A stretch of 64,000 nt of DNA from Squalus acanthias (Eukaryota). The translations under genes were made by a program, and so were the position numbers. Location: the NCBI GenBank assembly GCA_030390025.1, contig CM059432.1, positions 8,184,001 through 8,248,000 of the forward strand. Reading direction: 5' to 3'. This document shows positions 38,432 through 57,625 of this stretch, piece by piece; position 1 is the stretch's first letter, and each line of letters begins with the position of its first letter. The notes under the pieces were generated by a model that worked only from the letters and a program-made list of their open reading frames with translations, searched no databases and was not told the origin of the DNA.

Positions 38432-40395
38432 ATGGAGAGGGTGAGAGAACGCGCTCATCGCTTCACCGAGCGGGCCTTGGATGCTCTGGTTGACGCAGTG
38501 GAGCGCAGACGATGCATGCTGTTCCCGGAGAGTGGCAGGAGGCCTTTGCCACGCGAGTTCAGAAGAGTGTGGAGGGAGGTGGCTCAGAGCGTCTCCTCCA
38601 GGAGCATGGTGCCCAGGACCCATGTCCAGTGCCGCAAAAAGTTCAACGACCTCACTCGGGTCGTCAGGGTGAGTGGCTTTTTCTCAATACCTCTCCATCC
38701 CTCCATCTCAACCTCACTCTATGGCCAGAGGGTCTTAAAACCCCAATGCACAACACTCATCCAACACCTATGGCCCTTTCATCAAACACACACACACATT
38801 CCACACTTTGCATACAGTAAGGGCTATTCACCTATGGGAGGCACATCAGGCAAGACCATGGCTGCATACAGTAAGGGCTATTCACCTATGGGAGGCACAT
38901 CAGGCAAGACCATGGCTGCATATTGTAAGGGCTATTCACCTATGGGAGGCACATCAGGCAAGACCATGGCTGTATATTGACTCAGATGCTGTCCTTTTTC
39001 TTGCAGGCTAAGCTGGCTCATAATCGGAGACAGCAGCAACGGACGGGTGGAGGGCGGCTTCAGCTGCAACCCCTCAGCGATCTGGAGGAGCGCGTCCACA
39101 GGATTGTGGCAAGCCGGGTGATCGGTCCCGTCGCCACTGGAGACGCCGACCCCGTTGTGGACAGCAATGGTAAGGTCATCACCTTTTTGTCCTCTGTCCT
39201 TCCACTTGTCCCTCACAATACCAGCCTTTGACACTTTCAATCCAACTTGCTAACTCGCTGCACTTATTCCTCCCTTACTGCCACCCTGTCCTCACGCTAA
39301 AGCCACTCTTGTACCTCCCTGCTTTCAGATGGTGATTCACCAGCTGAGGAGATGGTCCCTGAAGCTGCCACTGGGAGTGATGCTGCAGCTGAGGAGGAAG
39401 AGGAAGCCGGAGCATCAGTGCCACCCTCTCCCGAGGAAGCCCATGGCCACACTGGGAACACGCCTTCCCCGGAGGGGAGCAGGGGGGAAGGGGCTGATGA
39501 TGGTGAAGTTCCAGGACCCAGCGGGCTGCAGCAACGCCATTGGGGGGGGAGGGAAGAACGGGGGAGCAGGGGGGAAGGGGCTGATGATGGTGAAGTTCCA
39601 GGACCCAGCGGGCTGCAGCAACGCCATGGGGGGTGGAGGGAAGAACGGGAGCCTTCTCCCCAGAGGGAGAGTATGCCAGACACTCCTAATGCAATGGACG
39701 CAGAGGAGGAGCGGCTGATTGCAGAAATGAACAGCCAGGCGGTGGTCATGCACACTGAGCTCATGGGTGCAGTGGGAAGGGTGCCCGAATGCATTGAGGC
39801 ACTGGCAAGGAGTGTGGAGCACTTCGCTGTAGCACAGGCGGATGCCACACTAAAGCTTACTGCTGCAATTCAGTCACTGGCTGCCAGGAACCCATCTGAG
39901 CCTGCTCTCATGCAGACTCAGATTGAGGCCACGCGAGCACTGACTGCTGCCATCCTCGATGGTTCGTGCACATGTCCCCGGGGCTGTCACCGCGCCGCAG
40001 CAGGCCAGCAATCTGTTCTCCAGCAAATTGCTCCGGATGCTGAAGTGCTGCCCCGTGGGAGTGCCAGTGTGTCGGGCGAGCAGGGAGTTGCTGTCCTCTC
40101 TCACGATGACAGCATTCCTGCTGCCAACACTGTCACTTCTCCACTGCACTTGCCACCGCCTGTAGGACAGACTGCTGCCGCCCATGCAGAGTTGGTGCAG
40201 TCTGCAGCCGGGCCCTCCAGGCCCAGAAGTGGTCGAGGCCGTCCTTCAGGGGCATCTGCAGTGTCAGGGTCTGACAAGCAGCAGCCTTCCACCAGCCTTG
40301 CTGCAGCCACTGAGGTCCCATTACGGAGGAGCAGTAGGGTTAGAAGGGGGGAAGTGCGCAAGGGAAGGAGATCACCCTCGAAGGGCAAAAAGTAG
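38432..40395 (+). CDS. Harbinger Myb/SANT-like protein, exons 38432-38668, 39007-39169, 39329-40395 (488 aa predicted)
   Basis: GT-AG sites are conserved with copy 1 and the spliced length of 1467 nt is in frame. Myb/SANT domain, RTGGG motif and basic C-terminus. Confidence 0.82.
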
Positions 40396-40689: not shown

Positions 40690-41850
40690 CTAGAAGCGGC
40701 TTGCTATTAGTCGTTGACGGACGGCCCTTGCAGTTTGACCATTGTGGGCCGCCCTCCTGCCTTGGTGCTGCTGCTGATCATCGTCCTCGGCCTGTTCCTC
40801 CTCTTCCTCCTCCTCCTCTTGTGGTGCTGCAAGGCCTGGTGGCATTGGCTGCGTCCTGAGGATTGCCATGTTGTGCAACATGCAGCACACCACTACGAAT
40901 TTGGAAACTTGCTCAGGCGAGTACTGCAGGGCTCCTCCGGAATGGTCCAGACAGCGGAATCGTTGTTTGAGCACGCCGATTGTGCGCTCAATAATGTTCC
41001 TCGTTGCTTGTTGGCTTTCCTGGTACCGCAGCTCAGCAGGGGTGTTTGGCGCACGGAGCGGTGTCATCAGCCAGGTGCTCAATGCGTACCCCTTGTCCCC
41101 CAGAAGCCAACCAACTGGCTGATGCGGTGCCTCGAAAATTTCTGCCACAGTACTCTGGCGCAGGATGAAAGCATCGTGGCAGCTGCCCGGATAGTGGGCA
41201 TTGACAGCGAGAATCACCTGTCTGTGGTCACAGACCAACTGCACATTCAAGGAATGGAACCCCTTTCTGTTCCGGAACTCCTCTGCATTCTCTCGTGGAG
41301 CACGCAAAGCCACATGCGTGCAGTCAATGGCGCCCTGCACCATGGGGAAGCCCGCTACCCTCGCAAAGCCCATAGCACGGTCATGCTGCTTGTCTGGGGT
41401 CATAGGGAAGGAGATGAAGTCTCGTCTCCTTGTGAAGAGGGCATTGGTGACCTGCCGGATGCAGCGATGCACCGCAAACTGGGAGATATTGGCGAGGTCC
41501 CCAACAGCAGCTTGGAATGAGCCAGTGGCGTAGAAGTTCAAAGCCACTGTGACCTTCACTGCCACCGACAGAGACGTCCTGGACCTCAGCTGAGGCTGCA
41601 GATCTGGCTGCAGCAGGTGGCAGAGCTCAGTGACCACCTCCTTGCTGAATCGCAGCCTTCGCAAACACAGCTCCTCGGACATGTGGATGTAGGAGAGCTG
41701 TTCACGATATACCCTGGGAGGGTAAGCTCTCCTGTACATGCGCCTGATGGGCCTCCTCCGTCTGGCCATCATTGCCACTCTCTGTCTGCGTCTCACTCTC
41801 CTCCGATTGAGCTGGAGCAGGACGACGCCCCCAATCATTGCAGCCCCCAT
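40690..41850 (-). CDS. HARBI1-like DDE transposase, 386 aa
   Basis: GAIDCTH, HDAFIL, LLGDKGY, IERTIGVLKQRFRCL, CCMLHN, acidic tail, RQRLIASRF. Confidence 0.93.
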   Translation of the reverse strand: MGAAMIGGVVLLQLNRRRVRRRQRVAMMARRRRPIRRMYRRAYPPRVYREQLSYIHMSEELCLRRLRFSKEVVTELCHLLQPDLQPQLRSRTSLSVAVKVTVALNFYATGSFQAAVGDLANISQFAVHRCIRQVTNALFTRRRDFISFPMTPDKQHDRAMGFARVAGFPMVQGAIDCTHVALRAPRENAEEFRNRKGFHSLNVQLVCDHRQVILAVNAHYPGSCHDAFILRQSTVAEIFEAPHQPVGWLLGDKGYALSTWLMTPLRAPNTPAELRYQESQQATRNIIERTIGVLKQRFRCLDHSGGALQYSPEQVSKFVVVCCMLHNMAILRTQPMPPGLAAPQEEEEEEEEQAEDDDQQQHQGRRAAHNGQTARAVRQRLIASRF

Positions 41851-42514
41851 ATTCTCTTTGCCAGAAAAGTAATGAGGTACAGCAACGAAAGTAGCAGCAA
41901 AGTTAGGATGAACTAGGCAAAACTACCTCACAAAGCGTTGAGTCAATGTAGAAGTCTCTCTCTCTCTCTCTCCGAATCTCTCTCTCTCTCTCAGAACGAG
42001 TGGTGCATAAATGTCGACCACAGAAAAAGACAGGAAGAGGCCCCCTTTAAATAGCGCCCCCCCCAGCCCCACACCGATTGATAACGTTCCAGTCTTCCGG
42101 TCGTTGGAAGCGCCAGGCGGTAAGGCAGGGGGCGCCACTCAATTTCCGCTCCGGGGCGCCCCAAGGGCGTTGCACCACGGAATGACGTCACAATCTGCGT
42201 GCGCAGGTGGTCGCAGCGGTAAGTTTTAGCGCCGCCGCACAATCTCAAGTTAAGTTCTCGAGCGGCGCAAACAGCGCTGCGCCCGGGCGTTAGCGCCTTA
42301 ACGCCCCATTAGCGCCCATTTAAGGCGCTAACGGGAGGCGCAACCAACTGAATTTTTACCCCTATAGGTTTAAATCTCACTCTGTAGACTTTAGCAGAAA
42401 AAATCTAGGCCGACACTCCGAGTGCAGTGCTGAGGGAGTGCTGCACTGTCGGAGGTGCCGTCTTTTGGATGAGACGTTAAACCGAGGCCCTGTCTGCTCT
42501 CTCTCAAGTGGATG

Positions 42515-44149
42515 TGTAAGGGGTGACCTGTGGCTCTGTGCTTAGCCTGGGTGCTAGTGCGGGGTTAGGCCCTGTTGCCTGCTCTGGTCTCCAGCCAGCC
42601 TGGTAACACTAGACACCTGTGAGTGGTTCGACCCACTCGCCCTTACGGTTCTGACACTGGACTTAGGTGCGAGAGCAATAATGCAGAGAAGACTCAGGTA
42701 GACCCGGTTGAATAGTGCGAAATGGAAAATCTTTATTGCATATTATTCAAGATTACGAGATACATGTCATAAGCACAGATTAACGACAGTACAATCTTAC
42801 ACACAGTTATGAAACTAATTTTAGGGAAACGAGGAGCGCACGACACATCGTAAAAGGGGATACACATTATAATTATCCTTAAAACTTAAACCCTCCCCTA
42901 TTAATACCTGTCCTAATCTAGATTTGTAGGATCGAGACTCATGCTCACCACTCGTGATAACTCGGAGAATTCCAAAACTCTGCTCGGATGTTTTTACCGC
43001 AGCACCTGACTATCCACGTGTTGATCAGGGGTCTCTGTACCCCACTTGTTTACTCGTTTCTGCTCCGGCTAGCAGGCTAGACCGTCTGCTGTCATGAAGA
43101 TCTGTGTTGTCCTCGGAGTTCTGATACTACTCAAAAAAGAGTCTTCCTGTGCCCTACACCGGTTCGGTAGAACTCGAAGAAGGATCTTCCTGGGCCAGTT
43201 GTGGAGTAGCCGATAAAATTCAAAGAAGTGTTTATTCGACTTACAGGCGCGGTCGGGGCTTACTGACCGTGGCGATGCGTATTGTTGTCTTCTTCTCTTC
43301 TCATCTCATCTCATCTCATCTCATCTCCTCTCGGGCCTTCGGTTCCAACACCGTTTACTGACTCCTCGGGATGGTGCGCCCGCCTCCAGGCCTCACAGCC
43401 CAGTTCTCCACAGATCTTCGCGGCAAGCCACGAGGTTGATCCTAGCGGATCAGAGTCCAGAGCTGTCAGGCAAGAGAATAAAAGTTCAGCAGTCTTCCAG
43501 CGAGTCAGAGCAGCAAGAGAAAGATGGACGATTGTACTTTACAGTTATAGTGCTGTAATTCCTCTTTTCCCGCCCAATCTTAATGTCTATCTTTTGTCAG
43601 GTTTTTGGCGCTCAAACTTCTTGTATGGGGTGATCTCAGTCTTTAATGGGTTTCGGTGATACTTGTAACTGTCTGAGTACCCGTTAATATTTCTCCCATT
43701 GTGGAACCGGCTAGTAGTCTCCCTGGAGGGGTTTTGGGGCTTCCAAATGCTTACTGTGAGTACCCGCAAACGGCTCTCTCATCGTAGAGTCATGGGGATT
43801 TTGCATATTAATGTCTTTGGATGGGTCCTTGATCGCTCAGTACAATAGCCCTTGTTTGCACCTGGGAGACCGATTTCAGTATTCATGTTTAAAGTGTAAA
43901 CCCATCGCGTCTTGTCATTATCTCATCATGTTGGATCTTTTCGATCTTGCACAAATGTTTATTGGAAACGCCATCTTGTCTGCCTACTGAAAGTCTAGAA
44001 CTTTCTGCCACGAGGCGTGGTGGCCATTTTACAGGCTGTTTGTGTCCGTTTTGAAACCTGACAGCATTCTGCTGAAATAAAGCTGTTTATACGAAACTTT
44101 ATGTCTCCTTCTTATTTTTATAAAATCGCATAATTTTGGGAATTCTACA
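42515..44149 (-). repeat. 3' LTR (1635 bp)
   Basis: Direct repeat of 50167-51800 with roughly 20-25 differences by eye. Minus-strand AATAAA at 42732-42737 and an internal (TCTCA)n tract. Confidence 0.95.
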
Positions 44150-44594: not shown

Positions 44595-46946
44595 TTACGT
44601 GGTGCTTTCATCGTGCACGCGCACGTAACGTTCTCGCCACTCTCCCGTGTTTTCGTTCTTGGTGAGGCGTTTACCTCTCTTACAATGCACGACCAATAAG
44701 TATATCACAATAAACACTTGGCATATAACTAAAATGTGGGAGGCTATTCTAATCCAGGAAGGCACTTCAATGTTGGTGAACAGATCCCACCACGGTGGAA
44801 TTCCTATGTCTAGAATTTCTGTCCCTATCTCGACAGTCTTTTGTTCTAGGGTGTAAAAATGTTTTTGCGATACCGCGACGGCTTTCAAAAGCTTGGTGGG
44901 GTGTTCAGGGAGAGGGGGAATGAGGTATCCGAAATGCGCGACGAATCGCTGCAAGTCGGTGAAGTTCTCTTTTACTGTAAGATGAACAGTGGATGGTTCA
45001 GGGATCGGGACAATTCGCTGTTGTGCCACTTGAACTTCCGCCCTGGGTTTAAAGCAGAAACTGCTGTCACTCACCGGACACCGGCTACGGTTTCCATGCT
45101 GGTAGTGTTGCGCTGCAGTGGTAACACAATATGTTCCACCCCCGATGTATGCTACCTGCGGAGGCACATGATCTTGTGCCATTGCCTCCATGGTGCAATT
45201 CATGGGCTTGGCGCCAGCCGTTCTGAACCCGCACTGTGGTGTTAAAAAGGCATTCAAGTGCTGGGGACACAGTATTATGTGTGCTCCCCGGCCACGACAA
45301 CCAGAGAGATCTGTACCTGTCATCGTTTGCTCCCAGCGTATGACGTAAGATGGAACCGCTGCATAGCGAATGTGGGCTCCCCCCTGAATGACACCAATGT
45401 TCTCTACCCGATACACCGGGGCAGGCTTTGCTGTGTCGCCCAAAACCGGTATACGTAATACTATACCCATGATGGTGTGGTTTGATCGTCCGCAGTCCAC
45501 GGGGACTGGGTATGCTTCTGAAGCTAGCCTGAGCTGGCACGGGCTTAATGCGTTCTGAAAAGGGTGGAGCGCCTGCAGGTGTTTGTTACTTATCCAGGAC
45601 GGGACCAAACCTTGTTTTAAATCCTCCAAATTACTGCGGCCCTCGCCCAGTAACCACGCCCCGTAAAGCACGCACACCTCATTCTGCGCAGCCTGATCGG
45701 ACGCATTACGATCTTCCCTGATCAGGGCATTTACCGTGCGCGCATGTTTCTCTAGTTCAGCTATTATTTCCTTTAAGTGTAGCGTCATGGCCTGGTCCTC
45801 ATGTAACCCAGACCCAACCATCTTATTTTCATCTGTGAGAATGTTCTTCAATTGTGTTTTTAAGCCATTAATCTGGGTCTGCAGCTCCACACTGTCTAGA
45901 GCGTTGACCACAGATGTACCTGTATTGAAAGCAGTGAACATGTCGTTCACAACACCCCTTCTTTGTCTCCCCACCTGACCCAAAACTTCATGTGGTGCGG
46001 TGTACAAACTTGTTTTATCAATTTCCGCGAAATCGAACTCATAAAATTGCCTAAACATCTTGGTCAACAGGATCTGATATAACTGTTCCGTCTCTTTGGG
46101 GCACCACTCCGGCAACCGCACCTCGGTGAGGTTTAAAATCACTGAGGCCACCGCGTAATGTACCCCCTGAAATAGTATCTGGTCTGTAGGGACCAATACC
46201 AAACCATTCCCGGGTCCCTTACTGGTTTTTGGGCACCCTTCTTCCTTAGCTAGAACCACCGGAATCGTGGGCGGGGCCTTGCGTGGGCGCGTAATGAGTT
46301 CAGTGGCATTTACCGGGATCGGAGAGTATGGAGCTCCGCACCCCCTGGTGCTCGCATCCCACCTCATCCCCTGCCCGTTATCCTGCCACTGATTGATGAA
46401 AAATATGGAGATGCCTTTGGGGCAAACGTGCTTTGACTCCCACATACATACATAAATTCCCTCATCCGGTTCCCACCATTTGTCCCAACAGACTCTCACT
46501 TGTCCGTTTGTCCCCGTAATTGTCCGATGGGTATTATTACCCAGTCGCTCCCACTCGACCGAAGAGTTCCTCATGTTTTTGCTCAGCTTTCGCAGCCACC
46601 ACCATCGGCTCAATGGGACATTCCCATTACAAGTCAAACAAATCCGTTTGCCGACGGTGACGCTGACTCTGGGTGCGATGATCCTCACTTTGGGGCACAT
46701 TAAAGAAGTCTCTTTGTAGGCAAAACCCGATGTACTGGAATACTCAGTGGAATTCGTTCCCAGCCATCCTGGCCACCTTCCCTTGTGGAAATAGGTGGTG
46801 GTATCCTTAGCCTCTCGCCTTCCGGTCCCATCCATCGCGATGGGGGCCATGTCCCCGGAGCATCCAAACACCACGACATCCTTGGTGCGGCCTCGATAGG
46901 CCAGTCCACATCCGATTGCCGCGAGCACTACTAGAATCCGTTCCAT
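44595..46946 (-). CDS. Envelope-like type I glycoprotein (ORF open from 47105; probable start at 46946)
   Basis: Signal peptide MERILVVLAAIGCGLA, Ig-like domain, furin site RQRR (45957-45968), putative fusion peptide and heptad repeat, Cys-rich region, N-glycosylation sequons, TM IASHILVICQVFIVIYLLVV and a short tail. Confidence 0.88.
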   Translation of the reverse strand: MERILVVLAAIGCGLAYRGRTKDVVVFGCSGDMAPIAMDGTGRREAKDTTTYFHKGRWPGWLGTNSTEYSSTSGFAYKETSLMCPKVRIIAPRVSVTVGKRICLTCNGNVPLSRWWWLRKLSKNMRNSSVEWERLGNNTHRTITGTNGQVRVCWDKWWEPDEGIYVCMWESKHVCPKGISIFFINQWQDNGQGMRWDASTRGCGAPYSPIPVNATELITRPRKAPPTIPVVLAKEEGCPKTSKGPGNGLVLVPTDQILFQGVHYAVASVILNLTEVRLPEWCPKETEQLYQILLTKMFRQFYEFDFAEIDKTSLYTAPHEVLGQVGRQRRGVVNDMFTAFNTGTSVVNALDSVELQTQINGLKTQLKNILTDENKMVGSGLHEDQAMTLHLKEIIAELEKHARTVNALIREDRNASDQAAQNEVCVLYGAWLLGEGRSNLEDLKQGLVPSWISNKHLQALHPFQNALSPCQLRLASEAYPVPVDCGRSNHTIMGIVLRIPVLGDTAKPAPVYRVENIGVIQGGAHIRYAAVPSYVIRWEQTMTGTDLSGCRGRGAHIILCPQHLNAFLTPQCGFRTAGAKPMNCTMEAMAQDHVPPQVAYIGGGTYCVTTAAQHYQHGNRSRCPVSDSSFCFKPRAEVQVAQQRIVPIPEPSTVHLTVKENFTDLQRFVAHFGYLIPPLPEHPTKLLKAVAVSQKHFYTLEQKTVEIGTEILDIGIPPWWDLFTNIEVPSWIRIASHILVICQVFIVIYLLVVHCKRGKRLTKNENTGEWRERYVRVHDESTT

Positions 46947-47242
46947 CCTTCCTTGGTTCCTGTGATCAGATAGAATGAGGTAGCCAGCCTCCCAAGAGTC
47001 TCTGGCTTTTGTGAAGGGTGAGCGGGTCCCCTGACCTCGCCTCACGTAAGAAGACATGTGCGCTGGATAGACTTTAACTATTCCTATCTCTAAAACTCCC
47101 ATCATTTTACCATTTTCTGTTAAAAACCTTAAACTACAAACTTAACCTGATTTAAGAACTATAAACTTGAACTTACAAAACTTATCAACTTATCACTTAT
47201 CTTAATAACTGTACAGTGCCGCCCGTTCCCAGGGCGGCCTAC

Positions 47243-48355
47243 TCAAATTCTGCGGTCGCTGCCGCAGGCTTCTCCCAACGGTGGGAGGGCATTGACCCCT
47301 CCCTTTGATCTGCCGCAGCCTGTTGCTGCTGCGCTGTGACTGGGCTCTCCCTGGGCTGCCTTAGCCCTGGACCTACGCTTAGGGACATACGGGGGACTTA
47401 CCCACATCTTTCTGGGCTGGGGTTTCCGACTTGACCTACGGGGAACTACCGGGGGCAGGAACTCCAGGACTGACGGACCGGGTTCCGAGACTTCCACCGT
47501 GGCGACCTGTGGTCCCACCACAGTCGCTGGCTCCGCCTCCCCTGACTCCGCCTCCCTGAACTCGGGATCTGCAGCTTGTGGCACCGCCCTACTTGGCCCA
47601 GTAGGCGGCCCTTCACTCGCAGTCCCTACCTCCCTCGAGGGCAGGACGTTCAAGGCGGGCGGCTTGGGCTCTGAGGCTTCCATCGCCACGCCCTGTGGTC
47701 CCACCACAGCGGCTGGCTCTGCCTCCCCTAGCTCCGCCCCCCTGCGTTCGGGACCAGCAGCTTCGGCCTCCACCCTGTGTGGATCTCTATCTGCAGCCCC
47801 TGTCTCCCCTACACCTGAATCGGGGGCGACCCTTTCGTCCTCCGATTCCAGCTCCTCTTCGCTTGCGTCACTATCTTGGTCGAGCTCCTCGAACTCTTCC
47901 TCATCTGACTCCCAACCCAAATAAAGGATCCTACATTTTGCTAGGATGTCCTCTCCCCTGATGCAAGCTGCTTTGCCTGCCTGTGTGCCCTGTGGCCCTA
48001 CCCGGGGCTGCGAGTCCCCACTCGCAGGTTTGGCCCCTGTGGTTGGCCCTTGTGCACCCGGCTTATACAGTTTGCACTGGTTAAAATCCTCATACTCCCT
48101 GCTTCTGGCTACCCTGTAGGCTGCCTTTATCGCTCCAAGCTGCCCTTCCAGCACGTCTAACTTTCCCATTAAGCGGGCGTTCTCCTCCCGCAGGGCCTGC
48201 TCTCTAAGCTGCCCTTCTAGCCCGTCTACTTTCCCTATTAAACGGGCGTTCTCCTCCCGCAAGGCCTGCTCTTCTAACCTGGCCTCCCTACAGGAGACCC
48301 CCTCCTGTGTGTGTCTTTTAAAGGGACACAGGTAGGCAGGCTGCGTGGGCTCTAG
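47243..48355 (-). CDS. ORF2: coiled-coil plus acidic/Pro-rich protein, in frame with gag after a single UGA
   Basis: The frame is open from the codon after the gag stop (48355) to 47243. No PR, RT, RNase H or IN catalytic motifs. Confidence 0.7.
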   Translation of the reverse strand, partial: LEPTQPAYLCPFKRHTQEGVSCREARLEEQALREENARLIGKVDGLEGQLREQALREENARLMGKLDVLEGQLGAIKAAYRVARSREYEDFNQCKLYKPGAQGPTTGAKPASGDSQPRVGPQGTQAGKAACIRGEDILAKCRILYLGWESDEEEFEELDQDSDASEEELESEDERVAPDSGVGETGAADRDPHRVEAEAAGPERRGAELGEAEPAAVVGPQGVAMEASEPKPPALNVLPSREVGTASEGPPTGPSRAVPQAADPEFREAESGEAEPATVVGPQVATVEVSEPGPSVLEFLPPVVPRRSSRKPQPRKMWVSPPYVPKRRSRAKAAQGEPSHSAAATGCGRSKGGVNALPPLGEACGSDRRI

Positions 48356-50162
48356 TCATTGGGTACCGGTGGACGGGGCTGCGGCATCTGCGGGGCCGGT
48401 AGCGACTGCCACCCTTCCCTGCGAAATCATGAGGGTGCGCATGGCTCCCAACATTGATTCGATCGCATCGGGATGGATAGGTGCACCAGCTCCCCTATCA
48501 GAAACAGGCGCCTGGGCTCGGACTGCGGGATTTTTATCCCTGGACTCCTTCCAAGGATTCCTGCAGTTCTTGCGCCAGTGCCCTGTCTTTCCGCATCCGA
48601 AACAAGCATTACTGGCCTGTGGGACGCGATTTCCCTCCTGATGCCACTCCTTTTGAGCCGGGGCTGTGGGCCGCGCCTCATGCACCTTTCCCTTAAGGGG
48701 ACGTGCTCCCGCACTCCTGGTATTACGGTACCCTACCGTGAGTCGATTTAGGACCGACTCCTCTGTAGTGGCAGGGTTAGTGGGATCAAACCACGCTTTG
48801 GCCTGCTCCCTGACGGCTGGCAAACTGTTGGCTACCACACACCTGAGCCAATGAGTTAAACCGACACCGTCTAGGCGGTGACGCGCTGGTGCGCCTGGGC
48901 AGCTACGCTGGTATACTGGCCACAGCCTGTCGGCGAAAACCTTCGGGGGTTCTCCCTCCATCTGCACTGTTTGTGCCAATCTAACGAACGGACCTTCATC
49001 GTCCGCGCCCAACACTTCCAGGACCTCGTCCCTCAATTCCCCATAGGTATTATTTCCCCTCTTGCTCTCGTCTGAGAGACACTGAAGGATCGAGCTGTCT
49101 AATGAGAACAACAGCATTTTTGCTTTTTCCCCATCGTCGCAGCCGTTAATGGCTGCGGTTTGCTCTACCTCCCTGAAATGTACGGAAGGGTCGTCTGACT
49201 CGGACAGCTTCCGTACGTGACTGATCATAGCCCTCAGCTGGTGTGAGCTGTGAGGCAACACAAGCTGGTTGAGGAGATCCCCCTCTGCCCCACCGTCTCT
49301 GTTCGGGCCCCTTTTGATACCCGTGACCGGACACAACGGTCCCGGCTTCACTTCTACCTCGGGGGGCTCTTTCTCTACTTCTACCACTTCCTTCCTCACC
49401 CAGGTTGCCGAATAGCTGGGTGGCGCGGAGGGCACAGTGGCAAATACCTCCTCTGCTTTGTTCGGTGGGGATTTCTGAAATTCCCCATCCACCAGCGGCT
49501 GGTGTGCTGACGGGCTGATAAGGCACACCATGCCGTGCGCTTTATTCAGGGCCTCTTTAAGGTTCCCTATCTCTCTTTGGCAGACGCTGTGATCGGCCCC
49601 CTCATGTTTATCCTCGAGGGCCATCTTATATGCCGCCCTAACCCCCGTTAAGCTCTCTTCCTGGGCTTTTATTTGGGCAGCTAGGCGGGCACATCGTTCC
49701 TTTATTCTGCCCTCATTTAACTTTGCCTCAGTGACCTGGCACTCGAGGTAATCTATTTTCGCCTCATGGTGGTTGGCGACTAACTGACGTTCTTGATGCA
49801 ACGCATTTAAAGACGCGATGAGCTGCTGCCCCCCCCGCGACCTTCTCGTCCATTTCCACCTCTAAACCCTTGATCTGAGCTGCCTGCGCTATGATGACCT
49901 GGTCCGAAAGCTGGACTTGTCTTTTATAGCACATCAGCCAGTCCGCTTTCTCTACTGTTCTTTTATGTTCCTTGCTACCTGTCCACCTCATGGCTGCCTC
50001 TAGTGGACACTTATCCACCAGCAGGTCACTTATCCATTTCTTAGTCAAATTCACTTTTCCAAACACATAATCTGCTATTCTCTCTTCCATAACATTTCGC
50101 CCATTCATACCAGGGTCTAACACATTATTTTCTCGCTGCCAGTGTCCCTTCGTGGTCGCCAT
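48356..50162 (-). CDS. Gag (~600 aa), one frameshift in a G8 run at 49829-49836
   Basis: Coiled coil, PSAPPSY, capsid-like region with MHR-like QMEGEPPKVFADRL, and zinc knuckle CFGCGKTGHWRKNC (48563-48604). Removing one G joins ORFs 49764-50162 and 48356-49801. Confidence 0.85.
50144..50161 (-). promoter_or_regulatory. Primer-binding site, tRNA-Arg
   Basis: TGGCGACCACGAAGGGAC, 5 nt after the 5' LTR. Complementary to the 3' 18 nt of a vertebrate tRNA-Arg(UCG) (...GUCCCUUCGUGGUCGCCA), recalled rather than searched. Confidence 0.85.
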
Positions 50163-50166
50163 TATC

Positions 50167-51800
50167 TGTAAGGGGTGACCTGTGGCTCTGTGCTTAGCCT
50201 GGGTGCTAGTGCGGGGTTAGGCCCTGTTGCCTGCTCTGGTCTCCAGCCAGCCTGGTAACACTAGACACCTGTGAATGGTTCGACCCACTCGCCCTTACGG
50301 TTCTGACACTGGACTTAGGTGCGAGAGCAATAATGCAGAGAAGACTCAGGTAGACCCGGTTGAATAGTGCGAAATGGAAAATCTTTATTGCATATTATTC
50401 AAGATTATGAGATACATGTCATAAGCACAGATTAACGATAGTACAATCTTACACACAGTTAGGAAACTAATTTTAGGGAAACGAGGAGCGCACGACACAT
50501 CGTAAAAGGGGACACACATTATAATTATCCTTAAAACTTAAACCCTCCCCTATTAATACCTGTCCTAATCTAGATTTGTATGATCGAGACTCATGCTCAC
50601 CACTCGTGATAACTCGGAGAATTCCGAAACTCTGCTCGGATGTTTTTACCGCAGCACCTGACTATCCACGTGTTGATCAGGGGTCTCTGTACCCCACTTG
50701 TTTACTCGTTTCTGCTCCGGCTAGCAAGCTGGACCGTCTGCTGTCATGAAGATCTGTGTTGTCCTCGGAGTTCTGATACTACTCAAAAAAGAGTCTTCCT
50801 GTGCCCTACATCGGTTCGATAGAACTCGAAGAAGGGTCTTCCTGGGCCAGTTGTGGAGTAGCCGATAGAATTCAAAGAAGTGTTTATTCGACTTACAGGC
50901 GCGGTCGGGGCTTACTGACCGTGGCGATGCGTATTGTCGTCTTCTTCTCTTCTCATCTCATCTCATCTCATCTCATCTCCTCTCGGGCCTTCGGTTCCAA
51001 CACCGTTTACCGACTCCTCGGGATGGTGCGCCCGCCTCCAGGCCTCACAGCCCAGTTCTCCACAGATCTTCGCGGCAAGCCACGAGGTTGATCCTAGCGG
51101 ATCAGAGTCCAGTGCCGTCAGGCAAGAGAATAAAAGTTCAGCAGTCTTCCAGCGAGTCAGAGCAGCAAGAGAAAGATGGACGGTTGTACTTTACAGTTAT
51201 AGTGCTGTAATTCCTCTTTTCCCGCCCAATCTTAATGTCTATCTTTTGTCAGGTTTTTGGCGCTCAAACTTCTTGTATGGGGTGATCTCAGTCTTTAATG
51301 GGTTTCGGTGATACTTGTAACTGTCTGAGTACCCGTTAATATTTCTCCCATTGTGGAACCGGCTAGTAGTCTCCCTGGAGGGGTTTTGGGGCTTCCAAAT
51401 GCTTACTGTGAGTACCCGCAAACGGCTCTCTCATCGTAGAGTCATGGGGATTTTGCATATTAATGTCTTTGGATGGGTCCTTGATCGCTCAGTACAATAG
51501 CCCTTGTTTGCACCTGGGAGACCGATTTCAGTATTCATGTTTAAAGTGTAAACCCATCGCGTCTTGTCATTATCTCATCATGTTGGATCTTTTCGATCTT
51601 GCACAAATGTTTATTGGAACGCCATCTTGTCTGCCTACTGAAAGTCTAGAACTTTCTGCCACGAGGCGTGGTGGCCATTTTACAGGCTGTTTGTGTCGTT
51701 TTGAAACCTGACAGCATTCTGCTGAAATAAAGCTGTTTATACGAAACTTTATGTCTCCTTCTTATTTTTATAAAATCGCGATAATTTTGCGAATTCTACA
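50167..51800 (-). repeat. 5' LTR (1634 bp)
   Basis: Direct repeat of 42515-44149, with the PBS adjacent. Confidence 0.95.
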
Positions 51801-52089
51801 GATGTCAAAGATTCCGTGGCACTATTTCGAAGAAGAGTAGGGGAGTTATCCCCGGTGTCCTGGCCAATATTTATCCCTCAATCAACATCACTAAAACAGA
51901 TTATCCAGTCATTATCATATTGCTGTTTGTGGGAGCTTGCTGTGTGCAAATTGGCTGCCGCGTTTCCTACATTACAACAGTGACTACACTTCAAAAAGTA
52001 CTTCATTGGCTGTAAAGCGCTTTGGGATGTCCTGAGGTCGTGAAAGGCGCTATAGAAATGCAAGTCTTTTTTTATCCATACCTTCTTTG

Positions 52090-52630: not shown

Positions 52631-53092
52631 GAAACTGCGCCCCCATCTCCAAACTCTCGTTCCTCTCCAACGCTATTGAACGTGTTGACACTTTCCGAAT
52701 CGATGCCTGTCTTCCCTGCAACTTTATATCTGAGTCTCTCTAAGTCAGATTTCTGCTCCTGCCACAGCAATAAAATGGCTCTTATCAAAGTCACGGATTA
52801 GTTCCTATGTCACTGTGGTGCGCTATCCCTCCTCATCCTTCTCGACCTGTCTGCAGCCTTTGACTCACTAGAGCGCACCATCCCACTCCAACGCCTCTCC
52901 TCCATTCTCCAGCTCAGTGGGACTGCTCTGCCCTCTTCTTCCTCATCTAAATACTGGCCCTTGTATGAACCCCAGACACAGGGCCAGTTTCCACATGTAA
53001 GCTGACAACGCCAGCGATGCCTCTCCAGTACCTCTCTATCGCTCGAGCACTCAAAAGCAAACTAAAGCCCCTTTGAAGGGAACAGATTGGAA

Positions 53093-56000
53093 GGGAGTGT
53101 CGGCGAGAGAGGGGAGTGTCGGAGGGAGAGGGGAGCGAAGGAGGGAGAGGGGTGTGTCGGAGAGAGAGGGGAGTGTAGGAGGGAGAGGGGAGTGTCGGAG
53201 AGAGAGGAGAGTGTCGGAGGGAGAGGGGAGTGTCGGAGGGAGAGGGGAGTGTCGGAGGGAGAGGGGAGTGTCGAGGGAGAGGGGAGTGTCGGAGAGAGAG
53301 GGGAGTGTCGAAGGGAGAGGGGAGTGTCGGAGGGAGAGGGGAGTGTCGGAGGGAGAGGGGAGTGTCGGGGGGAGAGGGGAGTGTCGGAGGGAGAGGGGAG
53401 TGTCGGAGGAAGAGGGGAGTGTCGGAGGGAGAGGGGAGTGTCGGAGAGAGAGGGGAGTGTCGGAGGGAGAGGGGAGTGTTGGAGGGGGAGGGGAGTGTAG
53501 GAGGGAGAGGGGAATGTCGGAGGGAGAGGGGAGTGTCGGGGGGAGAGGGGAGTGTCGGGGGGAGAGGGGAGTGTCGGAGGGAGAGGGGAGTGTCGGAGAG
53601 AGTGGAGTGTCGGAGGGAGAGGGGAGTGTCGGAGGGAGAGGGGAGTGTCGGAGGGAGAGGGGAGTGTCGGAGGGAGAAAGGGAATGTCGGAGGGAGAGGG
53701 GAATGTCGGAGGGAGAGGGGAGTGTCGGAGAGAGAGGGGAGTGTCGGAGAGAGAGGGGAGTGTCGGAGAGAGAGGGGAGTGTCGGAGAGAGAGGGGAGTA
53801 TCGGAGGGAGAGGGGAGTGTCGGAGGGGGAGGGGAGTGTCGGAGGAAGAGGGGAGTGTCGGAGGGAGAGGGGAGTGTCGGAGAGAGAGGGGAGTGTCGGA
53901 GGGAGAGGGGAATGTCGGAGGGAGAGGGGAATGTCGGAGAGAGAGGGGAGTGTCGGGGGGAGAGGGGAGTGTCGGAGAGAGAGGGGAGTGTCGGAGAGAG
54001 AGGGGAGCGTCGGAGTGAGAGAGGAGTGTCGGAGGGAGAGGGGAGTGTAGGAGAGGGAGAGGGGAGTGTCGGAGGGAGAGGGGAGTGTTGGAGAGAGAGG
54101 GGAGTGTAGGAGGGAGAGGGGAGTGTCGGAGAGAGAGGAGAGTGTCGGAGGGAGAGGGGAGTGTCGGAGAGAGAGGGGAGTGTCGGAGGGAGAGGGGAGT
54201 GTCGGAGGGAGAGGGGAGTGTCGGAGGGAGAGGGGAGTGTCGGGGGGAGAGGGGAGTATCGGAGGGAGAGGGGAGTGTCGGAGGGAGAGGGGAGTGTCGG
54301 AGGGAGAGGGGAGTGTCGGAGAGAGAGGGGAGTGTCGGAGGGAGAGGGGAGTGTCGGAGGGGGAGGGGAGTGTAGGAGGGAGAGGGGAATGTCGGAGGGA
54401 GAGGGGAGTGTCGGGGGGAGAGGGGAGTGTCGGGGGAGAGGGGAGTGTCGGGGGAGAGGGGAGTGTCGTTGAGAGAGGGGAGTGTCGGAGGGAGAGGGGA
54501 ATGTCGGAGAGAGGGGAGTGTCGGAGGGAGAGGGGAGTGTCGGAGGGAGAGGGGAGTGTCGGAGGGAGAGGGGAGTGTCGGAGGGAGAAAGGAAATGTCG
54601 GAGGGAGAGGGGAATGTCGGAGGGAGAGGGGAGTGTCGGAGAGAGAGGGGAGTGTCGGAGAGAGAGGGGAGTGTCGGAGTGAGAGGGGAGTGTCGGAGAG
54701 AGAGGGGAGTGTCGGAGAGAGAGGGGAGTGTCGGAGAGAGAGGGGAGTATCGGAGGGAGAGCGGAGTGTCGGAGGGAGAGGGGAGTGTCGGAGGGAGAGG
54801 GGAGTGTCGGAGGGAGAGGGGAGTGTAGGAGAGAGAGGGGAGTGTCGGAGGGAGAGGGGAATATCGGAGGGAGAGGGGAATGTCGGAGAGAGAGGGGAGT
54901 GTCGGGGGGAGAGGGGAGTGTCGGGGGGAGAGGGGAGTGTCGGAGGGAGAGGGGAGTGTCGGAGAGAGAGGGGAGTGTCGGAGAGAGAGGGGAGTGTCGG
55001 AGAGAGAGGGGAGTATCGGAGGGAGAGGGGAGTGTCGGAGGGAGAGGGGAGTGTCGGAGGGAGAGGGGAGTGTCGGAGGGAGAGGGGAGTGTCGGAGAGA
55101 GAGCGGAGTGTCGGAGGGAGAGGGGAATGTCGGAGGGAGAGGGGAATGTCGGAGAGAGAGGGGAGTGTCGGGGGGAGAGGGGAGTGTCGAGGGGAGAGGG
55201 GAGTGTCGGAGGGAGAGCTGAGTGTCGGAGGGAGAGGGGAGTGTCGGAGGGAGAGGGGAGTGTCGGAGGGAGAGGGGAGTGTCGGAGGGAGAGGGGAGTG
55301 TCGGAGGAAGAGGGGAGTGTCGGAGGGAGAGGGGAGCGTCGGAGAGAGAGGGGAGTGTCGGAGGGAGAGGGGAGTGTCGGAGGGGGAGGGGAGTGTAGGA
55401 GGGAGAGGGGAATGTCGGAGGGAGAGGGGAGTGTCGGGGGGAGAGGGGAATGTCGGAGGGAGAGGGGAGTGTCGGAGGGAGAGCTGAGTGTCGGAGAGAG
55501 TGGGGAGTGTCGGAGGGAGAGGGGAATGTTGGAGAGAGAGGGGAGTGTCGGAGGGAGAGGGGAGTGTCGGAGGGAGAGCTGAGTGTCGGAGGGAGAGGGG
55601 AATGTCGGAGGGAGAGGAGAATGTCGGAGGGAGAGGGGAATGTCGGAGAGAGAGGGGAGTGTCGGAGAGAGAGGGGAGTGTTGGGGGGAGAGCTGAGTGT
55701 CGGAGGGAGAGGGGAGTGTCGGAGGGAGAGGGGAGTGTCGGAGGGAGAGAGGAGTGTCGGAGTGAGAGGGGAGTGTAGGAGAGGGAGAGGGGAGTGTCGG
55801 AGGGAGAGGGGAGTGTCGGAGGGAGAGCTGAGTGTCGGAGGGAGAGGGGAGTGTCGGAGGGAGAGGGGAGTGTCGGAGGGAGAGCTGAGTGTCGGAGGGA
55901 GAGGGGAATGTCGGAGGGAGAGGGGAGTGTCGGAGGGAGAGCTGAGTGTCAGAGAGAGTGGGGAGTGTCGGAGGGAGAGGGGAATGTTGGAGAGAGAGGG

Positions 56001-56927
56001 GAGTGTCGGAGGGAGAGGGGAGTGTCGGAGGGAGAGCTGAGTGTCGGAGGGAGAGGGGAATGTCGGAGGGAGAGGAGAATGTCGGAGGGAGAGGGGAATG
56101 TCGGAGAGAGAGGGGAGTGTCGGAGAGAGAGGGGAGTGTTGGGGGGAGAGCTGAGTGTCGGAGGGAGAGGGGAGTGTCGGAGGGAGAGAGGAGTGTCGGA
56201 GTGAGAGGGGAGTGTAGGAGAGGGAGAGGGGAGTGTCGGAGGGAGAGGGGAGTGTCGGAGGGAGAGAGGAGTGTCGGAGGGAGAGGGGAATGTCGGAGGG
56301 AGAGAGGAGTGTCGGAGGGAGAGGGGAGTGTCGAAGGGAGAGGGGAGTGTCGGGGGGATTGCTGAGTGTTGGAGGGAGAGGGGAGTGTCGGAGGGAGAGG
56401 GGAGTGTCGGGGGGAGAGCTGAGTGTTGGAGGGAGAGGGGAGTGTCGGAGGGAGAGAGGAGTGTCGGAGGGAGAGGGGAGTGTCAGAGGGAGAGGGGAGT
56501 GTCGGAGGGAGAGAGGAGTGTCGGAGGGAGAGGGCAGTGTCGGAGGGAGAGCTGAGTGTCGGATGGAGAGGGGAGTGTCGGAGAGAGAGGGGAGTGTCGG
56601 GGGGAGAGCTGAGTGTCGGAGGGAGAGGGGAGTGTCGGGGGGAGAGCTGAGTGTCGGAGGGAGAGCGGAGTGTCGGAGGGAGAGGGGAGTGTCGGAGGGA
56701 GAGCTGAGTGTCGGAGGGAGAGGGGAGTGTCGGAGGGAGAGGGGAGTGTCGGGGGGAGAGCTGAGTGTCGGAGGGAGAGGGGAGTGTCGGAGAGAGAGGG
56801 GAATGTCGGAGAGAGAGGGGAGTGTCGGAGGGAGAGGGGAGTGTCGGGGGGAGAGCTGAGTGTCGGAGGGAGAGGGGAGTGTCGGAGGGAGAGAGGAGTG
56901 TCGGAGGGAGAGGGGAGTGTCGGAGGG
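53093..56927. repeat. 19-bp purine-rich minisatellite, ~200 units
   Basis: Unit GGAGGGAGAGGGGAGTGTC with point variants. Confidence 0.97.
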
Positions 56928-56979
56928 AAGCTGTTTGAGAGTGGAGTGCCTGCCATCTCTCACCACCTGTCCTTTTCAG

Positions 56980-57026
56980 GGCAATCTCATTGAGAAAGTT
57001 TGTAGCGGTTTAAAATTTGCAGAGAG
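56980..57026 (+). other. Candidate short host exon (47 nt)
   Basis: CTGTCCTTTTCAG acceptor and GAG|GTAAGT consensus donor. Open as GNLIEKVCSGLKFAE. Confidence 0.35.
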
Positions 57027-57409: not shown

Positions 57410-57625
57410 AAGAAAGATCTTGCATTTATATAGCGCCTTTCACGACCTCAGGACATCTTCATGTGCTTTACAGCCAGTGAATTACTTTCGAAGCGCAGTC
57501 ACTGTTGTAATGTTGGAAACGTGGCTGCCAATTTGCGCACAGCAAGCTCCCACCAGCAGCAATGTGATAATGAGCAGATAATCTGTTTTTTACTGATGTT
57601 GATTGAGGGATAAATATTGGCCCAG
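57410..57625 (-). mobile_element. Deu-like SINE 3' fragment
   Basis: Reverse complement of the 19970-20180 region. Confidence 0.7.

Follow-up and report, generated by a model that had tools for sequence, protein, structure and literature searches.

A probable in-frame pol-deletion scar between gag and env of a lokiretrovirus-like endogenous retrovirus in Squalus acanthias

Introduction

A 9.3-kb LTR element lies on the minus strand of a 64-kb stretch of the Squalus acanthias genome (the whole of the DNA analysed here, hereafter the window), with its genes in the order gag, ORF2 and F-type env, and its pol slot is occupied by ORF2, a stop-free frame of 370 codons (47243-48355, minus strand). 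The explanation that we favour, and that we regard as reasonably probable, is that a lokiretrovirus-like endogenous retrovirus (ERV), which is non-autonomous and carries env, lost pol by a deletion of which ORF2 is the in-frame scar, and that the open frame helps the RNA in cis and the residues themselves are little constrained. Defective elements of this kind are known, and the present one is an unusual form of them, probably a pol-less relative of the lokiretroviruses that keeps env.

In the proposed model, the deletion would have removed protease, RT and RNase H together with almost the whole of integrase, and about 70 codons of Gag-like coiled coil, later duplicated, would bridge a protease stub to the integrase tail. 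Template switching would have brought in the coil, probably from an RNA that was packaged together with that of the element and belonged to its own or a related family. ORF2 would be translated only via readthrough of the ancestral gag-pol UGA, and the resulting Gag-ORF2 protein would enter particles by its Gag part and be a largely inert, disordered passenger, the enzymes for mobility being supplied by pol-bearing relatives. The frame probably stays open since translation through ORF2 aids the RNA in cis, as in IAP 1Δ1, and may matter more than the residues it encodes. Searches for longer proteins with the Gag core (870 candidates) or with ORF2 aa 1-200 (4784 candidates) found no pol-bearing helper, a negative that carries little weight, and the metagenome and viral contigs searched held no related loci. 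The family seemingly has many copies in several species, which offers a test of selection for translation in cis versus selection for a product.

Structure of the element

The present insertion is a young endogenous retrovirus. Its LTRs are 98.8% identical (1613/1632 aligned bases in a pairwise alignment), and at a divergence of 0.6% per LTR, ORF2 is expected to have gathered about six substitutions and about 0.3 stops. The remaining landmarks are collected in Table 1; a short purine-rich tract is found just before the 3' LTR, and the primer matching the PBS is, we assume, tRNA-Arg(UCG). The window holds no further copy of the provirus. The NCBI Gag model from skate (P0004) begins with the same N-terminus, at the PBS-overlapping ATG, and the closest named relative of Gag is a Rhinoraja longicauda protein (57% identical). 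The N-terminal coiled coil of Gag gave weak coiled-coil Pfam hits, and among the PDB matches by sequence there was no CA fold match for Gag. In the present copy the gag reading frame is disrupted near 49.8 kb.

The assignment of Env to the F-type fusion proteins comes from ESM Atlas feature hits of residues 300-800, at 0.92 (PF12259, on 61% of members) and 0.91 (PF00523, on 83%); the F family was not found in Env by direct Pfam scans, and comparison of Env with the PDB by sequence gave no real match. Pfam scans of gag, ORF2 and env found none of the pol enzyme domains (protease, RT, RNase H, integrase core), Rfam yielded no matches, and the interval between gag and the env spacer is only 1.1 kb. 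Near the N-terminus of the Env frame, a weak Ig_3 match (E 0.16) covers aa 150-232 (46446-46692, minus strand).

Table 1. Features of the element, with positions counted from the first base of the window.
Feature	Position	Strand	Basis or remark
5' LTR (TG...CA), ~1.63 kb	50167..51800	-	LTR-LTR alignment; direct repeat
PBS	50144..50161	-	overlaps gag ATG at 50162-50160
gag: N-terminal coiled coil, capsid-like core, single CCHC knuckle	48356..50162	-	ORF and domain scans
gag stop, CAA-UGA-CUAG (candidate for readthrough into ORF2, same frame)	48352..48361	-	sequence
ORF2 aa 1-19, probable protease-start stub (P-x-x-YLC)	48299..48355	-	by-eye likeness, unscored
ORF2 aa 20-90, coiled coil with tandem duplication, ends in Gag-like AAY motif	48086..48298	-	repeat search, alignments
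ORF2 aa 91-370, last strand of integrase C-terminal domain (NQCK.YK) and Pol tail	47243..48085	-	P0010 match
Acidic tract, aa 149-174, within integrase tail; also in P0010	47834..47911	-	alignment
Pro/Glu/Ala-rich unit x2, 186-nt (62-aa) period	47450..47776	-	repeat search
Basic RRS..PQPRK motif, aa 303-316, common to P0010	47408..47449	-	alignment
env, F-type fusion protein, RQRR site	44595..46946	-	ESM Atlas feature hits
3' LTR	42515..44149	-	direct repeat; LTR-LTR alignment
TSD GATG, 4 bp	42511..42514 and other copy 51801-51804	.	flanking sequence

Composition of ORF2

Judged from protein comparisons, ORF2 is a chimera that consists mostly of disordered integrase tail, together with a duplicated coiled coil. 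Its first 19 residues are probably a stub of the protease start, as by eye alone they look like the residues that precede the catalytic motif in a number of published lokiretrovirus proteases. The identity of the long C-terminal part comes from a search of ORF2 against 1.84 billion representative proteins, which returned two hits. One of them, P0010 (E 6e-32), aligns with ORF2 from around aa 92 almost to the C-terminus, with 45% identity in the aligned stretches and with the acidic tract and the RRS..PQPRK motif both included; it has about one 62-aa unit fewer than ORF2. The other, P0011, was set aside as a repeat protein without relation to ORF2, and the PDB hits of P0010 were dismissed as chance. 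To the left of ORF2 aa 92 there is no convincing match to P0010, which has a GPY-type motif there. P0010 aa 12-49 match SH3_Tf2-1 (E 0.002), a match common to Ty3/Gypsy integrases too, and P0010 also matches Integrase_p58_C (E 0.1), in both cases under the curated cut-off.

P0010 and the integrases of lokiretroviruses end alike by eye (GP..I.DK.SP.V...KW.H.NQ.K), ORF2 aa 92-98 match published loki integrase ends, again by eye, and the published integrases show an HINQ or HRNQ end at 13 places in the searched part of the supplement (PMC7947760). Because the P0010 match starts there and the loki integrase ends look alike, the junction of ORF2 with Pol is placed at the last strand of the integrase C-terminal domain, and the integrase-derived tail in ORF2 would be ~280 residues long. 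The loki integrases viewed end at most ~20 residues after the NQ motif, in contrast to this long tail (PMC7947760, integrases in the available part).

A sequence-only reading of the same DNA had anticipated several of these features. Its 23-aa tandem duplication was recovered as a 69-nt repeat (48133-48270, 87% identical) and its acidic tract was confirmed; its Pro/Glu repeat is real and larger than the ~35 aa proposed, with 141 nt at 75% identity. The likeness to an integrase tail, which it saw at the end of ORF2, was right yet understated, since about three quarters of ORF2 are such a tail, and the RRS motif that it placed at the very end is followed by 54 more residues. The resemblance to Gypsy-type integrase ends that it noted gives way to a lokiretrovirus-like affinity, in view of the F-type Env and the loki-type integrase end. 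As for its proposal that a Gag-derived module replaced the enzymatic core of pol, no pol enzyme domain is present, the coil lies at the place of the core and the rest is integrase tail, as that proposal would have it; the Gag origin of the coil is only probable, and the sequence-only reading had overlooked that ORF2 is for the most part a plain remnant of pol.

In sister contigs of X6, X12 and X8 the sequence differs just after the coil-to-tail junction (48038-48077), which suggests that there is a second subfamily whose junction is different or has diverged. One X8 contig breaks off at precisely 48082, where the junction is predicted; this would agree with a branch point there and proves nothing.

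Origin of the coiled coil

The similarity of the ORF2 coil to Gag, first noted from the bare sequence, was compared with shuffled sequences and with natural coiled coils. Aligned with the element's own Gag over aa 20-95, ORF2 has a local score of 67, which was reached by 2/3000 shuffles of the whole of ORF2 and 0/3000 shuffles of the region, and by 4/3000 and 0/3000 when the heptads were preserved, so that nearly all shuffled coiled-coil controls (all except 0-4/3000) were exceeded. For each of six Gags, 0-13/1000 shuffles scored as high as the ORF2 coil. The best local score was obtained with P0005 (pairwise E 9e-6), a Gag from a Logan contig whose coiled coil carries 18 inserted residues, seemingly from a local duplication, in the part that resembles ORF2. 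The match terminates on a V.AAYK block that is invariant in 6/6 Gags. Scored with a Gag profile, the coil segment reached 15.3 bits (whole ORF2, 11.2), a value that none of 2000 heptad shuffles attained (1799 scored), and the best unrelated coiled coil among 177,635 PDB sequences reached 12.7 bits with the same profile.

Other comparisons place the coil level with the best unrelated PDB coils, and they speak for an origin outside Gag, either as a decayed and duplicated linker helix of integrase or as an unrelated coil whose heptads have converged on those of Gag, which we consider very unlikely. In phmmer searches the own Gag scored 13.7 bits and six other Gags 8.6-11.5 bits, against 13.2 bits for the sole unrelated match at E<=10 among the same PDB sequences, and hhalign gave the ORF2 coil probabilities of 40% and 13%. 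The coil has no DNA-level similarity to the element's own gag (264/500 shuffles score as well), and loki integrases have, by eye, an L..L..AF..A helix before their SH3 domain that could have served as a source; however, Gag shows an exact fit to the L-x-G/A-V/I-K/R-A-A-Y register, which the integrase helix follows less closely (also by eye), no PDB coil and no shuffle comes up to the profile score of the coil segment, and an integrase origin would require a second deletion that removed most of the SH3 domain.

The Gag origin did not reach significance in a database-wide search, and the ESM Atlas returned only leads under 0.9 for ORF2 aa 1-150. Because the natural coiled-coil controls score level and there is no DNA similarity, the Gag origin is rated as probable and not as proven; we hold with good confidence that the coil stems from a Gag helix. 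A recent copy of the own gag was rejected, as there is no DNA similarity, and the coil was probably acquired from Gag long ago or came from a different family.

Expression of ORF2

Four full-length homologous Gags also terminate in Gln, at the same alignment column as the Gag of the present element, and for this reason the gag stop is regarded as a family trait and most likely as the gag-pol boundary. UGA CUAG is named as a readthrough-prone context in the available part of one report (10.1101/2021.04.18.440353). The start of ORF2 has no ATG, its methionines being found solely at positions 63, 225 and 317. Having no start codon and lying in frame behind a leaky-type stop, ORF2 is hardly a free-standing accessory protein, and a separate ORF2 protein was discarded as unlikely, with Met63 having a pyrimidine at -3. 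Any ORF2 product would most likely be a minor Gag-ORF2 readthrough fusion, which the present copy cannot make because its gag is broken. No strong splice acceptor turned up in a crude scan of the sequence immediately ahead of ORF2, and the RNA after the gag stop shows no clear structure (z -0.3 to -1.9).

A consensus-like splice donor (GG|GTAAGT) is located at 47402 (minus strand), within the ORF2 tail, and a weak acceptor-like CAG at 46960, just before the env ATG; when the two are joined by hand, ORF2 is not in frame with env.

Variation among sister copies

Sister copies were compared over 46000-50170 in 4/22 runs, from three organism codes, and all four runs cover all 30 bins of this interval, including the coiled coil. 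For substitutions, 40 of 759 rows were listed and 35 were classed, two rows in the spacer and three upstream of the gag break being left out; the rows mix private and lineage changes, and some are linked. Among these 35 the synonymous share is 10/15 in env, 5/9 in gag and 3/11 in ORF2, where the neutral expectation is 0.24, and the difference between ORF2 and gag plus env has a p of 0.057. In this small sample, the ORF2 substitutions in the sister contigs look neutral.

For indels, 12 of 49 rows were listed, together with 11 joint rows, and the count leaves out a 1.1-kb deletion, joints of unknown in-between length and the gag rows. Four of the ORF2 events keep the frame (3, 6, 39 and 75 nt) and one, a 70-nt duplication in an X8 contig, breaks it. 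Among the rows listed, triplet indels thus make up 4/5 events in ORF2 versus 1/7 rows in the ORF2-env spacer (p 0.045, or 0.09 with the 6- and 75-nt events merged), p-values that are optimistic, as several spacer rows are linked and the tail events may come from helper elements. The triplet excess is indirect evidence bearing on translation in cis. The 1.1-kb deletion, from one X1 contig, cuts across ORF2 and env, and X1 and X6 carry an additional 75-nt unit in the coil that keeps the frame.

The internal repeats of ORF2 offer a second view of constraint. The two copies of the 62-aa repeat are 25% diverged, with 13, 11 and 11 differences at codon positions 1, 2 and 3. The two 23-aa copies differ at five synonymous and four non-synonymous codons (p 0.04-0.14), and three of the differences between them coincide with rows where the present copy differs from its sisters; this is a faint hint of constraint, which the pol-deletion reading does not need. 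The overall pattern points to a frame of ORF2 that is mostly kept, around residues without visible constraint.

Two further explanations are considered. In the first, which recasts the role proposed in the sequence-only reading as that of a fusion protein, the coil is a selected module by which Gag-ORF2 cross-links helper Gag or Gag-Pol, either aiding the packaging of the satellite or interfering with the helper. By analogy with the foamy viruses, in which the N-terminal coiled coil of Gag is described as a dimer interface (PMC3649970, available part), the satellite would have swapped its enzymes for a second Gag helix, made at Gag-Pol stoichiometry by way of the former readthrough signal, an adaptor or decoy favouring the satellite genome, an arrangement we think unlikely. 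The grip of Gag-ORF2 on helper Gag or Gag-Pol, for which we see a similarly small chance, would bias enveloped particles toward the satellite genome; if the coil were indeed selected and bound helper Gag, a satellite retroelement would have built a hijacking protein from Gag. The presence of the coil in all four runs, its retention in frame with in-frame variation in copy number (the extra unit of X1 and X6) and the synonymous changes at five of the nine differing codons of the 23-aa copies all fit such a module; however, only 2/6 of the sister differences listed within the coil are synonymous, the ORF2 coil corresponds to no more than the C-terminal part of the Gag helix (~30% identity), and the Gag-ORF2 fusion would already have a full Gag coil. 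Foamy Gag may serve as a model for the role of the donor helix, and ORF2 differs from the foamy Gag N-terminal domain in being a partial helix without the head domain (PMC3649970, available part).

In the second, which we judge quite improbable, ORF2 is neutral debris that is open solely on account of the youth of the pol-less lineage and of a tail inherited open from Pol, and neither its frame nor its product is of any relevance. The youth of the insertion and its neutral-looking substitutions agree with such an account, as would triplet indels in the tail that derive from helper contigs. Against it, both coil junctions, the 69-nt and 186-nt duplications and the further 75-nt unit are all in frame, and the divergence of the 62-aa copies implies a lineage old enough to have gathered stops; moreover, in diverged X12 and X8 contigs the frame apparently terminates at the same position in another stop codon (loose ends, read by hand). 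The pol-deletion scar with a frame that serves the RNA in cis remains the reading that we prefer.

Relation to known elements

The closest functional parallel is IAP 1Δ1 of the mouse, which has a deletion-born gag-pol fusion frame and obtains its enzymes in trans, and whose fusion is reported to help retrotransposition in cis (PMC6466679, here and below as described in the available part). Like IAP 1Δ1, the present element is a non-autonomous ERV with an internal deletion that leaves a novel open gag-pol frame: it has paired LTRs, a PBS and a TSD, no pol enzymes, and residual pol that is open in the gag frame. By this analogy it most likely works as a 1Δ1-type non-autonomous ERV. In contrast, IAP 1Δ1 deletes part of gag as well as pol and is without env, whereas here gag and its stop are kept and env is intact; and, unlike in IAP 1Δ1, ORF2 depends on readthrough, with a probably Gag-derived coil inserted at the deletion (PMC6466679).

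By sequence, the element likely belongs with the lokiretroviruses, although it has no RT of its own. It shares with them an F-type Env with an RXXR site and, on weak Pfam hits, an N-terminal coiled coil in Gag (their 'smc' region), and differs in having a CCHC knuckle in Gag (PMC7947760, available part). In Loki-Oja, the 'smc' region begins a Smc-Gag-Pol polyprotein and gag-pol forms one frame without a stop, in contrast to the stop between gag and ORF2 here (PMC7947760, same part). The survey of lokiretroviruses by Wang and Han had 0/6 chondrichthyan genomes positive, according to the text of its Fig. S1 (PMC7947760, part available). The interest of the element lies in a host group in which that original survey had none, in the apparent UGA-CUAG readthrough signal and in the very long integrase tail.

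Pol-less relatives of the lokiretroviruses are also known from zebrafish, where the BHIKHARI elements Bik-1 and Bik-2 are described as recently active and dependent on partners for enzymes (PMC12067270, available part). Like the present element, they are pol-less and have an N-terminal coiled coil in Gag, and they show that pol-less loki relatives can remain active; they differ in encoding Gag only, without env or a pol remnant frame (PMC12067270, same part). A published description of an element such as the one reported here was not found among titles and abstract openings on lokiretroviruses, shark ERVs and pol-less elements, a scope outside which subscription journals and repeat databases lie. 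Of the texts searched by word, PMC9040795 has no mention of readthrough, stop codon or coiled, PMC12440569 none of shark or readthrough, and 10.1101/2023.10.26.564294 none of shark or cartilaginous.

Genomic surroundings

The provirus apparently sits in a SINE-like host repeat (42380-42514 and 51801-52070), which we take to resemble the tRNA-derived SINEs of sharks and part of which reappears inverted at 57410-57622. About 600 bp from the provirus lies an intact-looking Harbinger-type DDE transposase (40690-41922, minus strand; PF13359, E 6e-38), faced by a long ORF without a Pfam hit (39301-40395, plus strand), perhaps the tail of a partner gene. On the other side, a minisatellite of about 4 kb (52960-57000) has a 19-nt period and extreme GC skew, and is open in several frames.
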